From Bacilli bacterium (GTDB lineage Bacteria > Bacillota_I > Bacilli_A > RF39 > UBA660), in the NCBI GenBank assembly GCA_017544165.1, contig JAFYER010000001.1, positions 18,946-82,945 of the forward strand: a stretch of 64,000 nt of DNA. The letters are read 5' to 3'. The first letter of the stretch is position 1. Each line of letters opens with the position of its first letter. Shown in pieces: positions 29,715-37,058 of the stretch. The notes below the pieces were generated by a model, which was given only the letters and a program-made list of their open reading frames with translations, was not told the DNA's origin and ran no database searches. Both the position numbers and the translations under genes were made by a program.

Positions 29715-32700
29715 GTGAAGAATAAATCTTTAATTACTTTAGTAGCAATAAGCTTTTTAATCTTTTTTGGCTTAATTTTTTCTGTCTATAAAATTACTAC
29801 TAAAAAGTCAGAAAGTTTTTATACTAAGGGTTATATTAGCATAAGTGATTTTTCATCTTCAAAAAAGATTTATTTTGATGAGGGCACGAGTTACAAAAGG
29901 GGATATAGTAAACAATTAATATTTAGGGATAGTGAAAATGTTAAAAGAGAAGTACCTAAAGATTCTTTTGTTTTTTATAGTAATAAGTCTATTAATTATT
30001 TGAGCGACGGAGTTCTTATGGATTTAAATGGCCTTAATGGAACATTTATTCCTTATTACAACATTAAAAGTAATTATTTAATCGAGTATAAAGATGGTAG
30101 ATATGTTATTGATGCTAAAGAAAAGGATATTGTTTTAAATAATTTTATTGGTCGAATTAATGAACAAAAATATTTAGTAGCAGGTAATGATTTAAAATTA
30201 AAAGTAAGCAGTTCCGAAAAAATGATTTCTGGGTACTATTTCGAACTTAATTTTGGCGAGGGAAATTTAGTTAAAATTGATAATGATGAAATAAGTTTGG
30301 AAACTGTTAGTGATGAATGCTATATAATGGTTGGCGATGATATCAAAATTGATTTAAGTAAAAAGGTTATTTATTACAAAGATGAAGAAAAAGCTAATCT
30401 TTCGGAAATAATTATCGATAATGATGCCAATATTGATATTGAATATGACGAAAAACAGGGCGGCGGCGGTTCTGGCGAAGGCGGCGAAGGAAATGAAACA
30501 AATACTACACCTGGAGGCCAAACTATTATCGATGAACCTGAATATACGCCTGAAACAGTAATCGAATATAAAAATATTCCATACGTTGAAATAATTAATG
30601 CAAATTCAAGTGCTCATCAAATAGCACTCGATTTTAGAGTTATTGATACAAATAGATTAATTACGGGATCATTAAAGGTTAGATACACAAATCTTAAAAC
30701 TGGTTATTCAGAAGTTAAAGAATACAATAGCTATGCCGGAACGATTAATTATATAATTGATAATTTAACAAGTAATAACGATTATTTAGTAACTATTTAT
30801 GCTTCTTATATGCGTGGTGGAACGCTTTATACTGATTATAGAATGTTCCAACGAGTATTTACAACTAAAACTCTTGGGGTATTGCTAGCCAAAGATTATA
30901 CAACTTCTTCAGAAATAGCTTATAATGTTAATTTTGATGCTGATGCTAATTATGAATCAATAACAATTAGTTTATATGATAAGACAGGCCACAAAATTGA
31001 CTCAAAAACAATTAATCGAACTGCGGGTAATTCCACAATAATATTTGATGGTTTAAATAGTGATGAAAGATACAATATAGCTGTCGAAAGCTTTAATCAT
31101 GGTAACATCACTTATACAGCTGATGATTTTATTGAAAGTGTAGCAACAACATTAAAGAAAAATCCTTTTAGATCATCAGGAACTATTGTAAGCAATCCAA
31201 CTGCGATAATTAATAAAAAAGATTATAATGTCAAATTTAGTCTTGGTGAAATTAACGATTCTAATAATGCTGTGAAATCTGTGGTTTATAATGTATATAA
31301 TGCCAAAGACAATAGTTTAGTTGACACAATTACGAAAGATAATATTGCAGATTTTGAAATCCCATTTGGTGATAAGGTTAAGGCTTATATCGATGGTGAA
31401 GCTCAAACATATTATTTTAATGCTATTGTAACAATGGACGATAATGAAAAATTAGTTGATTATAAAACTTCTAATAGCAATAATTTCAATATGGAAACTA
31501 AGATTTATCCTACACTTAGATATATTTCCGAGGTTCTAACTGCTAATACTGCAAGAGGTAAATTTATTATAACCGATACTGATAATGCGATTGATACAAC
31601 AAAACAAGTATATGTTGAATATACTGATACTCTTGGAATTAAAGGTACAAAAGCTTTAGAATACACTACATGTCCAGAAGATGAAAGCGCTACTTCAAAA
31701 TGTATAAATATGTATATTGATGGGTTAAATAGTAGTGAAAGTTATACATTAAGTTTAATGGCTTATGTAGATACTAAAGATAAAGACGTAACTCCTGGGG
31801 TTGTTCAAATTGGTGCTGTTAAAGTCGTTACTGAAAAAGCAGATATAATTTTGACAAATATATCATCTAGAGATCTTGAAATCGAGGAAGCTACATCAAA
31901 GATGTTTGAATTAAGTATTGGCTTTAGCATTGATGAAATAACTGATGAAGCTATTAAGAATAATATGTCTAGTTTCGATATCCTTTTATATGAAGGGTCT
32001 GATATTAATGGTATTTATTTAGCTACCCTTCATGTTGACCATGATATTGTAAATGATTATTTTGATAATACCAAAACACTTACTTTAGGTGATTTTAATT
32101 TAACACTCGATGCAATTAGAAACATGCATATTGCTGAAGGAACACAAATATCTAAACGATATACTATTCGCTTAACAAATGGTATAAGCGGAACTGATTA
32201 TGTTGAATTTAAACCTTATACATTTACTTTTGAAATTAATTCCGCTTTGCTTGATATTTTAAATGGCAATTGTGAAATACAAGTAACACCTATTCTAAAT
32301 GGTAGTTTAGCTACTAAAGTTAGTGGTCTTGAGGATAACACCATAGTAGGCTTAAAAGTTACACCAACATTTGCTAATAAATTCTATGCCAAAAAGATAA
32401 ATATTACAATAATTGATGTCACAAGTAATTATAATAATTATGAATTAAATTCGACAAATAACATAAAAAAATCATTTAGTCTTAATCTTGAAAATAATAG
32501 TGTTATACCAGAGTATGAATTTTTAATGAGTGATGAAAGCTTATATTTAAATGATACTCAATTTTTGAAACGTGGTAGAGTATATAGAGTAATGTATACT
32601 GTTGAACTGGATTTAAACGGTGATGGTATTGCTGATATTGTATATCCATTTTCAAATAATGATGTTACAAAACCAGAGCCTGTTGTTTCAAATCCAATTG

Positions 32701-35699: not shown

Positions 35700-37058
35700 A
35701 TGCGTAAGTTAGATAAAAAAAATAAAACATTCATTGTTGCCCTATCGGCTCTTACAATAATAGTATTAGTAATTATGATAGGTTTTATCATAGTAAAAAT
35801 TGGTAAAACAACGGTTAAATATGATATTTTATCAGGTAGTTTCGTTTATAATTCTTCGGAGGAACTTGTATCTATAAAAGACAAGACATATGCAAAAAGA
35901 AATGTTTTTGATAATTATTATGTAGTTTTAAATGACGAAAAAATAAATGTTGGTTCTAAACCGGTCTTTTACAACGAAAGAACAAGAAGTTTAAAATTAT
36001 TAGGAACGTTTTATGAAATTGCCAAAAATGGTGAAGTAAAAAAATATAATGGTGAAACTACAATTGATAGTGTGAATACTCCAAGATTATTTAAAATTGC
36101 AGATCGTCGTTATTTAGTGGTTGCTTCCGTTATAAGAACGGATGATAATTCGCTTCATGCTAATGATTATTTATTAGTGGATATCGATAAAGCTGGTAAT
36201 GCTTATCTTTATAACAATAGTGTTAATATTAAGACATTTAGTGATTTAGTAATAGTTACAGATGGCTTTCGTTTTGATGTAAGTAGGGAATACTTAATTA
36301 TTGATAAAGAAACAATTGATTTAGCTAAAGTAAATGGTAGTACGAATGAACATGACCGAACCATTGTTGAAGATGGTGAAGGTGATGGCAATGGAGGAAA
36401 CGGTAATGGTAATGGTACTGGTGAAGAACAAAATCCCGCTACTCCGACAAACGAAAAACTAGAACCAGAAATAATTGAAAAATATGTTTCACGAAAGACA
36501 ACAATAACTGGTATTGAAACAACTGATAGTGAAATTAAAATTGATTATGTTGTATACGACCCATTTAATGAATACGAAGAAGTATATGTTAATGTTTATG
36601 CAAATGGTAATCTTGTTGGCAAATATAATTTGGGTTTAGCTCTAACTTCATTAACTATTTCTTCATTAAAGGCTTATACTTATTATGATTTAGATTTTTA
36701 TTATTCATATCATGATGAAACTGGAACTCTTAAAACAATTAAGTTTGATACAGCTAGATCAATGACAAAAAAGATTAAAGCATCACTAAGTCTTGAAAAA
36801 GTTAGTGATTCTGTTGTAAGATATATATTGATAGTAGAGGGTGGCTATCGTTTAGATAGTGCTAGTGTTGAAATGTATATCGATGACAAATTAGTGGGCA
36901 CAGACGAAGTAAATACTGCGCAAGCTGCCTCAAATAGTGGTTACAAAGGTTCAATTACATATGAAGGAACAGGAGATTTTGTAACACTGAAATTAACAAA
37001 CTGCATTTATAATGGTGAAGCAATGGATATTGAGTCATCATATAAATATAAATTTTAA
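35700..37058 (+). CDS. membrane-anchored surface protein, short paralogue of the giant protein
   Basis: 452 aa. Same architecture: TM helix, related juxtamembrane module (RRYLVVAS compared with QKYLVAGN), Gly/Asn linker [18 protein letters not shown], and two or three beta-sandwich-like repeats. Confidence 0.65.

Follow-up and report, generated by a model that had tools for sequence, protein, structure and literature searches.

A candidate mechanical F1-like ATPase encoded with a giant surface protein in uncultured gut Bacilli

Here we describe a cluster of eleven genes, found in a 64,000-nucleotide stretch of a Bacilli bacterium genome (contig JAFYER010000001.1, positions 18,946 to 82,945; hereafter the window), in which homologues of F1Fo-ATPase subunits are encoded together with three single-pass surface proteins (G1, G2 and G9), the first of them close to 2,000 residues long (Table 1). 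The reading we favour, with slightly better than even confidence, is that the encoded enzyme is a derivative of the F-type rotary ATPases that has given up ion transport and whose ATP-driven torque would act on the surface trio. The coupling between motor and trio is suggested by the finding that, in distant lineages, surface and motor genes interleave in four different orders. To judge from its subunits, the ATPase is F-type in origin, and a role as ion pump or synthase is untenable; we reason that a mechanical role is plausible instead, since the carboxylate of the c subunit is lost, an a-subunit is absent and a third single-pass partner (G9) is present.

F1-like subunits and a c-like proteolipid without the ion-binding carboxylate

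The c-like protein scores above the PF00137 cut-off (29 bits) and aligns over its full length with solved c subunits, the best PDB match being the c1 subunit of Acetobacterium woodii (4bem_J, E = 1.5e-12). At the position where ion-translocating c subunits carry Glu or Asp, an Ala stands opposite the Glu of the spinach sequence ('...FMEAL...'), and Ala, Ser or Thr occupies this site in the window protein and in 40 distinct homologues; the one partial exception (locus L046) has an Asp one residue earlier. The residue at this site was also verified, independently of the alignment of homologues, with sequences from the PDB. The cytoplasmic loop GRNPETK is invariant in the family and presumably forms the contact site for gamma and epsilon. 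An a-subunit was not found among the Pfam and NCBIfam matches of the cluster. G8 was considered as a short version of it (its 'TLRLENTAGSY' resembles 'LRLFGNMYAGE') and rejected, as the Arg is not conserved in the family and the protein has no Pfam or NCBIfam match. The best conserved proteins of the cluster are the c-like, alpha and beta ones (57-96% identity), which speaks for a maintained machine and not for a decaying operon.

The alpha-, beta- and gamma-like proteins are clear F1 homologues by Pfam, and their catalytic motifs are kept (Walker A and GERxREG in 49 of 49 beta sequences, the Arg finger SVSRLG in 50 of 51 alpha sequences); the C-terminal domain of alpha is approx. 65 aa shorter than that of canonical alpha. 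Scored against curated models, these proteins miss the NCBIfam equivalog cut-offs of Type 1 (atpD 416 vs 462.85, atpA 369 vs 484.45, gamma TIGR01146 52 vs 194) and that of PRK13343 (407 vs 554), those of Type 2 (MMOB1660/MMOB1670 for alpha and beta, 375 vs 600 and 333 vs 850), those of Type 3 (alpha MSC_0619 287 vs 520, beta MSC_0618 382 vs 570) and, with the c-like protein, those of the N-ATPase alt_F1F0 models (alpha 329 vs 750, beta 363 vs 752, c 20 vs 131). The match of beta to the Type 2 model begins only at model position 248, which means that the N-terminal extension of that family is absent from the window protein, and against the PDB beta scores higher with canonical F1 beta (340 bits) than with the beta subunit of the Mycoplasma mobile 'G1-ATPase' (9io5_A, 276 bits). 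The FliI/SctN models gave 181-215 bits against cut-offs of 380-620, and the cluster has two paralogous subunits plus a gamma. Judged by these curated cut-offs, the cluster falls outside Types 1, 2 and 3 and outside the N-ATPases.

Two variations of the alpha-like protein were observed. Its start is ambiguous, as public records hold versions of 446 and 440 aa (the longer overlapping G4 by 17 nt), and in several loci the protein carries a C-terminal extension (L081 11726-14995, L063 3938-6886 and L046 8817-11486, as well as L054, L057, L070 and L035). There it reaches totals of up to 1,090 aa, with approx. 650 extra residues after the nucleotide-binding domain; the extension, which matches nothing in Pfam, is reminiscent of the additional domain borne by beta in the M. 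mobile G1-ATPase.

The remaining ATPase-side genes are less readily named. Profile searches of G4 and G7 against the PDB found nothing, and Pfam offered lone weak matches (OSCP for G4, 17 bits, below cut-off and in 1 of 14 members; ATP-synt_DE_N for the G7 family in 1 of 15 members, E = 0.21). These did not amount to sequence proof that G4 is a b/delta-like stalk and G7 an epsilon, and we use both labels tentatively. The Type 3 accessory families had no NCBIfam match in the cluster at E <= 0.1. Counted along the cluster, its membrane proteins have 1, 1, 2, 1, 4-5 and 1 transmembrane (TM) segments.

Distribution and conserved linkage

Homologues of G2 came solely from metagenomes and metagenome-assembled genomes (MAGs). 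An exhaustive profile search resolved the G2 family into 442 clusters at 50% identity. By scanning one genome per species we found 182 stretches encoding a G2 relative, of which 80 loci (designated L) were kept for analysis, all of them from gut MAGs. The carriers are labelled Bacilli, 'Mycoplasma sp. CAG:472/956', Tenericutes, Erysipelotrichaceae, Ca. Faecimonas and Ca. (Allo)scybalousia, names that we take to be typical of the orders RF39, RFN20 and ML615J-28. The three orders, which comprise reduced as well as walled and sporulating species, branch amid the Mollicutes and Erysipelotrichales.

F1-like genes were present in 47 of the 69 informative genome loci seeded with G2 and, conversely, G1 or G2 in 58 of the 61 informative metagenome loci seeded with c. 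Four gene orders were distinguished: G1-G2-c-G4-alpha-beta-G7-G8-G9-G10-gamma (order I, that of the window), G1-G2-G9-c-G4-alpha-beta-G7-G8-gamma (order II), G1-G2-c-G4-alpha-gamma-beta-G7-(G8)-G9 (order III) and c-G1-G2-G4-alpha-gamma-beta-G7-G9 (order IV). The interleaving of surface and motor genes is kept down to 24-30% identity of the surface proteins. An earlier note on this DNA had proposed a survey of whether homologues of the giant protein always neighbour the ATPase genes: the linkage proved conserved across this range and through the four orders, and fell short of universal, as 22 of the 69 informative loci hold the surface trio with no F1-like genes nearby. G9 was present wherever G1 and G2 were in the examined loci, and we therefore treat the surface set as a trio.

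The converse arrangement was met as well, in stand-alone clusters of seven genes (c, G4, alpha, beta, G7, G8 and gamma; L131 10001-15419, L156 10001-15264, L157 10001-15279 and L147 2636-7920). Neither G1 nor G2 was found within 10 kb on each side of them in L131, L156 and L157, or in the 2.6 kb upstream in L147. In gene number these clusters equal those of mycoplasmas, their content being different. The nearest relatives belong to order II both for the trio-only loci (22) and for the ATPase-only clusters (three to four), which is most simply read as descent from an order II operon that would have split at the junction between G9 and c.

Trio-only loci have companions of their own. A conserved six-TM protein of approx. 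217 aa, without a Pfam match or similarity to window proteins, follows G9 in many of them (L042 12169-12822; L024, L025, L029-L031, L033, L039, L055, L066 and L072). In four species, a gene set resembling a type IV secretion system (T4SS) stands directly after the trio (L002 9198-16649, L056 12448-21558, L071 12614-21038 and L049 12212-21402; partly L047 and L065), and consists of a protein of approx. 414 aa, a polytopic protein of approx. 660-760 aa, a TraC-like protein and a VirB4-type ATPase. The trio-linked VirB4 proteins are 71-94% identical to one another and approx. 28% identical to VirB4 of Gram-positive conjugative plasmids. The set is either an inserted element that separates the trio from the ATPase genes or another type of partner machine. 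We downgraded the VirB4-type ATPase as an alternative motor of the trio, since these trios group next to order II, as do the ATPase-only clusters, and an inserted element is at least as likely.

The surface proteins

G1 most likely starts at the GTG at 29715, which has an AGGTGA 5 nt upstream and is the residue from which its homologues align. One homologue (P0001) is likewise 1,992 aa long and aligned at 100% coverage, and all 33 homologue clusters lie between 1,734 and 2,082 aa. The hydropathy scan gave a single TM segment in G1 (residues 6-24) and in G2 (residues 12-30), each preceded by Lys/Arg; the topology of both is N-in/C-out with a single helix. The cytoplasmic part of G1, G2 and G9 amounts to only 5-16 residues.

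Structure prediction with AlphaFold2 (AF2) gave G1 and G2 a common plan, in which the TM helix is followed by an all-beta module of approx. 170-190 residues, a disordered Gly-rich linker and beta-sandwiches. For G1 the model covers residues 1-1100 (predicted local distance difference test score, pLDDT, 80.8) and places the helix at 4-28, the module at 39-228, the disordered linker at 236-287 and about seven or eight consecutive beta-sandwich domains after it; in residues 1101-1992 the evidence for domains comes from profile repeats, which extend to about residue 1803. In G2 (pLDDT 80.6) the helix spans residues 6-37, the module 40-207 and the disordered linker 223-265, with two beta-sandwiches (268-355 and 361-451) after it. 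Foldseek matched the G1 model to FN3/Ig/MG arrays (E = 1.5e-16 to FN3 arrays) and that of G2 to tandem FN3 domains as its top PDB matches (E = 3e-7). The internal repeats of G1 are very divergent yet detectable (residues 288-384 against 599-689 with 95.6% probability, against 1703-1803 with 86% and against 389-479 with 62%), and distant homologues have precomputed PF00041 matches. We estimate that some 17 FN3-like domains, at 3.5-4 nm each, would give the G1 rod a length of 60-70 nm.

The juxtamembrane modules of G1 and G2 are 22% identical over 173 aa (BLASTP, E = 0.004) and match in hhalign with P = 57% (E = 1e-4), and a search of sequences with the module hidden Markov model (HMM) gave a best E of 2e-5, as compared with 0.16 or worse for shuffled controls. 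In addition, the two FN3 domains of G2 align collinearly to the first two of G1 (hhalign, P = 71% and 88%). This weak but consistent evidence points to remote, collinear homology of the modules, and G2 is best described as a putative short paralogue of G1. That G9 shares this module is uncertain: its match to the G1/G2 module is weak (hhalign, P = 33%), the HMM-to-sequence search gave it no support and no PDB relative of G9 was found. Conservation of G1 and G2 is highest at the membrane-proximal base (0.52-0.55) and falls to 0.30 distally.

No LPXTG-like motif occurs in G1 or G2, the Pfam search revealed no SLH or choline-binding domain in either, and G1, G2 and G9 match no Pfam or NCBIfam family. 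The architecture that the earlier note had read from the letters (an N-terminal helix, a related juxtamembrane module, a Gly-rich linker and repeats of Ig/FN3-like periodicity, the same in both proteins) is borne out by AF2, Foldseek and hydropathy; the structure and topology predictions that it called for returned FN3-like beta-sandwiches (in G1 up to residue 1100, and in G2) and one TM helix each; and its proposal that the N-terminal helix is the sole tether is consistent with the sequence, in which sorting, S-layer and choline-binding signals were not found. Such anchoring would fit the hosts, if they belong to RFN20 or ML615J-28, since sortases are reported missing in those two orders (PMC10868615).

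Enlarged surface proteins were noted in some loci. In one sub-lineage (L111, L112, L119, L121 and L152; e.g., L112 8719-14033) G2 grows to 608-613 aa and is accompanied by two enlarged G9-like paralogues (approx. 403 and 480-490 aa) and by a further protein of 861-882 aa after the epsilon-position gene, while L113 and L115 encode a G2 of 710-720 aa.

Limits of the probable operon and genomic context

The eleven plus-strand genes are enclosed by two terminator-like hairpins and follow each other with intergenic gaps of -17 to +17 nt. The gap between G1 and G2 measures 6 nt (35694-35699) and that between G2 and c 17 nt (37059-37075), the latter containing AAAGGAG. We consider it likely, from this arrangement, that window positions 29658-43624 represent a single operon of eleven genes, from G1 to the gamma-like gene. 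A weak plus-strand site of the terminator scan (38823-38841) was not accepted as a terminator, as it lies within the alpha-like coding sequence. The open reading frame (ORF) coordinates, lengths and the 6- and 17-nt spacings given in the earlier note were all correct, and its claim of a single, uninterrupted unit with the ATPase genes is likely to hold, as convincing terminator-like hairpins occur only outside 29658-43624. Its promoter fared less well: the TTGACT-18-TACAAT site at 29658 is present and even has a TG extension, but its kind of match is not statistically distinctive (125 found in the scan vs 112 expected from shuffles), so that position alone supports it.

Table 1. Features of the putative operon and its borders (positions in the window; res, residues)
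Feature	Position	Strand	Remarks
Terminator-like hairpin	29612..29632	+	Ends upstream ddl; 5' boundary of the unit
Sigma-70-like promoter candidate	29658..29687	+	TTGACT-18-TACAAT with TG extension; supported by position only
G1, giant surface protein, 1,992 aa	29715..35693	+	TM helix, all-beta module, linker, FN3/Ig-like array
G1 juxtamembrane all-beta module, res 39-228	29829..30398	+	Most conserved part of G1
G1 disordered Gly/Glu/Asn-rich linker, res 236-287	30420..30575	+	AF2 pLDDT 26-45
G2, putative short paralogue of G1, 452 aa	35700..37058	+	AF2, Foldseek, hhalign, hydropathy
c-like proteolipid, 81 aa	37076..37321	+	2 TM; GRNPETK loop; Ala at the ion-binding Glu/Asp position
G4, 250 aa	37325..38077	+	One N-terminal TM and cytoplasmic body; tentative peripheral-stalk (b/delta-like) candidate
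F1 alpha-like, 446 aa	38061..39401	+	Walker A GDKKTGKT; Arg finger SVSRLG
F1 beta-like catalytic subunit, 449 aa	39401..40750	+	GGAGVGKT, GERSREG, DELSEED-like DEVSEED
G7, 87 aa	40740..41003	+	Epsilon position (after beta); family conserved; label tentative
G8, membrane protein, 171 aa	40996..41511	+	4-5 TM; follows G7 in ATPase-linked loci; no conserved Arg
G9, single-pass protein, 242 aa	41495..42223	+	Ectodomain of approx. 200 aa; third trio member
G10, soluble protein, 112 aa	42225..42563	+	Only in window-type gene order
F1 gamma-like, 263 aa	42572..43363	+	PF00231 81.8 bits vs cut-off 39.9
Terminator-like hairpin	43605..43624	+	First convincing plus-strand one 3' of the promoter

The unit is flanked on its 5' side by genes for DnaE, PolC, a PASTA-type penicillin-binding protein, Lon, a Mur ligase and Ddl, and on its 3' side by those for IreB, RuvX, a DUF1292 protein and YceG. 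These neighbours place the locus in the core chromosome of a Firmicute that has genes for peptidoglycan. A plasmid origin was rejected, as G2 has no match in PLSDB and the neighbouring window genes are housekeeping ones. The window has a G+C content of approx. 29% and nearly all of its genes lie on the plus strand. GC skew is negative only in the 60-62 kb bin (window 60001-62258), which holds the sole long minus-strand ORF (60777-62258), all other long ORFs being on the plus strand. Two further large ORFs amid the housekeeping genes (18026-19837, 603 aa, and 49801-52056, 751 aa) have no Pfam match at E <= 1e-4.

Proposed mechanism and alternatives

In the mechanism that we propose, G4, possibly together with G8, would form a stator against which ATP hydrolysis turns the c-ring, gamma and the protein at the epsilon position, and the movement would reach G1, G2 and G9 within the membrane or at its outer face (a cytoplasmic contact being unlikely, since the trio has almost no cytoplasmic part). 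There it would displace, tension or turn the G1 rod, which would cross the wall. Possible outputs include surface motility, adhesion dynamics (cyclic catch and release of ligands) and the clearing of bound host molecules, the last of which has been proposed for the Type 3/MIB-MIP system of mycoplasmas. Two geometries may be envisaged: the trio could sit on the rotor, for which the single-pass helices that centre V-ATPase c-rings offer a precedent (PMC10003446), or it could be mounted on the stator and work like a crank, which is how mycoplasma Types 2 and 3 have been modelled (PMC12994834). Neither geometry gains support from the TM helices, whose conservation is weak. A bolder and purely hypothetical variant, drawn by analogy, would have the helices of G1, G2 and G9 inside the ion-blind c-ring or fixed to it, so that ATP hydrolysis spins a FN3 rod of approx. 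2,000 residues outside the cell, and would see in the cluster a living intermediate between F1Fo and the mycoplasma motors; we hold this to be improbable, a shade more so than the export and co-location explanations discussed below.

Several observations weigh against a motor that works on the trio. The physical link between the two is drawn from gene neighbourhood only, and roughly a third of the informative G2-seeded loci (22/69) keep the trio apart from F1-like genes. The TM helices of G1, G2 and G9 are poorly conserved (0.37-0.43) and bear no sign of a specific helix-ring interface. The assignments of G4 to the stalk and of G7 to the epsilon position go by position and size and not by sequence matches. 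Finally, the loss of the carboxylate would also be compatible with a decaying or purely structural remnant, although decay is hard to square with how strongly c, alpha and beta are conserved.

The same observations bear on the possibility that trio and ATPase are merely neighbours, the former being ordinary adhesins, the latter having an unrelated role and the synteny having been inherited within one clade. All carriers are related uncultured gut Bacilli, which is what such a history would predict, and the weakly conserved TM helices, the 22 trios without an adjacent ATPase and the three ATPase clusters without a trio are in line with it. Yet the genes are interleaved and not just adjacent (G9 is found between G8 and gamma, ahead of c or behind G8, and some loci have c upstream of G1), the linkage has outlasted four rearrangements as well as the divergence of the surface proteins, and stop-start overlaps and short gaps suggest translational coupling; we therefore find co-location without functional coupling unlikely. 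Far less probable still is an ordinary, if divergent, operon for F1Fo ATP synthase that follows two genes for surface proteins: homologues of c, alpha, beta and gamma are there and the best PDB matches of beta are canonical F1 beta subunits, but with the c carboxylate gone and neither an a-subunit nor its conserved Arg present it is effectively excluded, and the sub-threshold scores of alpha, beta and gamma and the extra conserved genes G8, G9 and G10 point the same way.

A third explanation keeps the partnership and changes its purpose, making of the cluster an export or assembly machine whose F1-like ATPase unfolds, inserts or threads G1 and its partners across membrane and wall. A protein of approx. 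2,000 aa may need help in crossing the wall, F1 relatives drive type III export (noted in PMC11864180), alpha and beta also score against the FliI/SctN models, and genes for a VirB4-type secretion ATPase follow the trio in four to six species. Against this, the N-terminal signal anchors of G1, G2 and G9 are ordinary helices of a kind that Sec/YidC can handle, no homologue of an export gate was found by Pfam or NCBIfam, and several rotary parts retained in the cluster have no counterpart in export ATPases (the heterohexamer, gamma, the c-ring with its gamma/epsilon-contacting loop and the DELSEED-like lever); the VirB4-linked trios are moreover nearest to order II, the clade that also holds the ATPase-only clusters, and their T4SS genes may be an insertion. 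To us an export role seems about as doubtful as mere co-location, and a rotary ATPase acting mechanically on the trio remains the reading that we prefer.

Comparison with known systems

F1-like ATPases that power surface proteins are known from mycoplasmas (PMC12994834, PMC11864180, PMC3369863). The nearest parallel is the Type 3 'F1-like X0' ATPase that works with MIB-MIP (the MSC_0618/0619 family; PMC3369863, PMC12994834), which is likewise an additional F1-derived set of alpha, beta and gamma (and epsilon) without a normal Fo, shares an operon with surface proteins (for which the ATPase is needed) and has been suggested to transmit mechanical work through the membrane. Within the class Bacilli, moreover, its hosts are relatives of the present ones (PMC10868615). 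The window cluster differs from it in that alpha and beta score below the family cut-offs, in having a c-type ring and a single-TM stalk candidate, and in lacking both the 12-TM protein and the large signal-peptide protein with two C-terminal TM helices. The partners differ too, being an Ig-binding protein and a protease in Type 3 and FN3-rod proteins here; MIB-MIP was not found at the window locus, where G1, G2 and G9 have no Pfam or NCBIfam match and the neighbours are housekeeping genes. Unlike the mycoplasmas, the present host has peptidoglycan genes.

The Type 2 'G1-ATPase' is the gliding motor of M. mobile (MMOB1660/1670; PMC11864180, PMC8406192). It shares with our cluster the F1-like motor, which in Type 2 is thought to drive very large surface 'leg' proteins, and a large extension on a subunit of the catalytic ring, which some lineages here bear on alpha (up to 1,090 aa). 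It is set apart by its cut-offs (which our proteins miss), by the N-terminal extension of its beta (ours is closer to canonical F1) and by other accessory genes. The leg genes of M. mobile are not known to lie in the ATPase operon. The parallel with M. mobile gliding suggested in the earlier note thus stands as far as an F1-like motor and a giant surface protein go, and fails for the ATPase family and the accessory subunits; gliding may serve here as an analogy only.

With canonical bacterial F1Fo the cluster shares homologous c, alpha, beta and gamma subunits, and order III (c, stalk, alpha, gamma, beta, small protein) mirrors the canonical atpE-F/H-A-G-D-C; it departs from it by the missing ion-binding carboxylate and a-subunit, the sub-threshold scores, the three surface proteins and the 4-5-TM protein. 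For the missing carboxylate there is a partial natural counterpart in A. woodii c1 (4bem_J), in which one hairpin has a Gln at the aligned position; there, the other hairpin and c2/c3 keep their carboxylates and the ring still carries Na+, whereas here no carboxylate is left. A structural precedent for the attachment of G1, G2 and G9 to a rotor is offered by the V-ATPase proteins Ac45/ATP6AP1, PRR/ATP6AP2 and Voa1, single-pass proteins with extracytoplasmic domains whose helices lie amid the rotary c-ring (PMC10003446), with the difference that V-ATPases pump protons; no sequence relationship is to be expected.

A rotary machine that drives a giant surface protein is known from another group. 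In the gliding Bacteroidetes, the rotary motor GldLM drives SprB, an adhesin of several thousand residues with Ig-like repeats; that system is driven by the proton motive force, spans a diderm envelope and is built of proteins unrelated to the present ones. Our full-text literature searches found F1-like 'mechanical' ATPases described only in mycoplasmas, and no such cluster in RF39/RFN20-type Bacilli. What is new here is thus a different membrane sector (an ion-blind c-ring and a 4-5-TM protein), different partners and a host with peptidoglycan genes; what is of a known kind is the principle of F1-derived motors serving surface proteins.

Significance

How the F1-like motors of mycoplasmas pass force across the membrane is unsolved (PMC12994834, PMC11864180), and the cluster described here offers a compact, defined list of parts for the transmission of force by a rotary ATPase without ion coupling, with the surface partners encoded in the same operon. 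It may also represent an evolutionary intermediate between F1Fo and the mycoplasma motors. The uncultured gut Bacilli that carry it include walled and sporulating species and, as a group, are interspersed with the Mollicutes (PMC10868615). A mechanical surface motor of this design has so far been described only in wall-less mycoplasmas, and if the rod did spin, a Gram-positive-type bacterium would possess a rotating extracellular appendage driven by ATP. For its carriers, a large group of bacteria from human and animal guts about which little is understood, the cluster is a candidate organelle of host interaction or motility.

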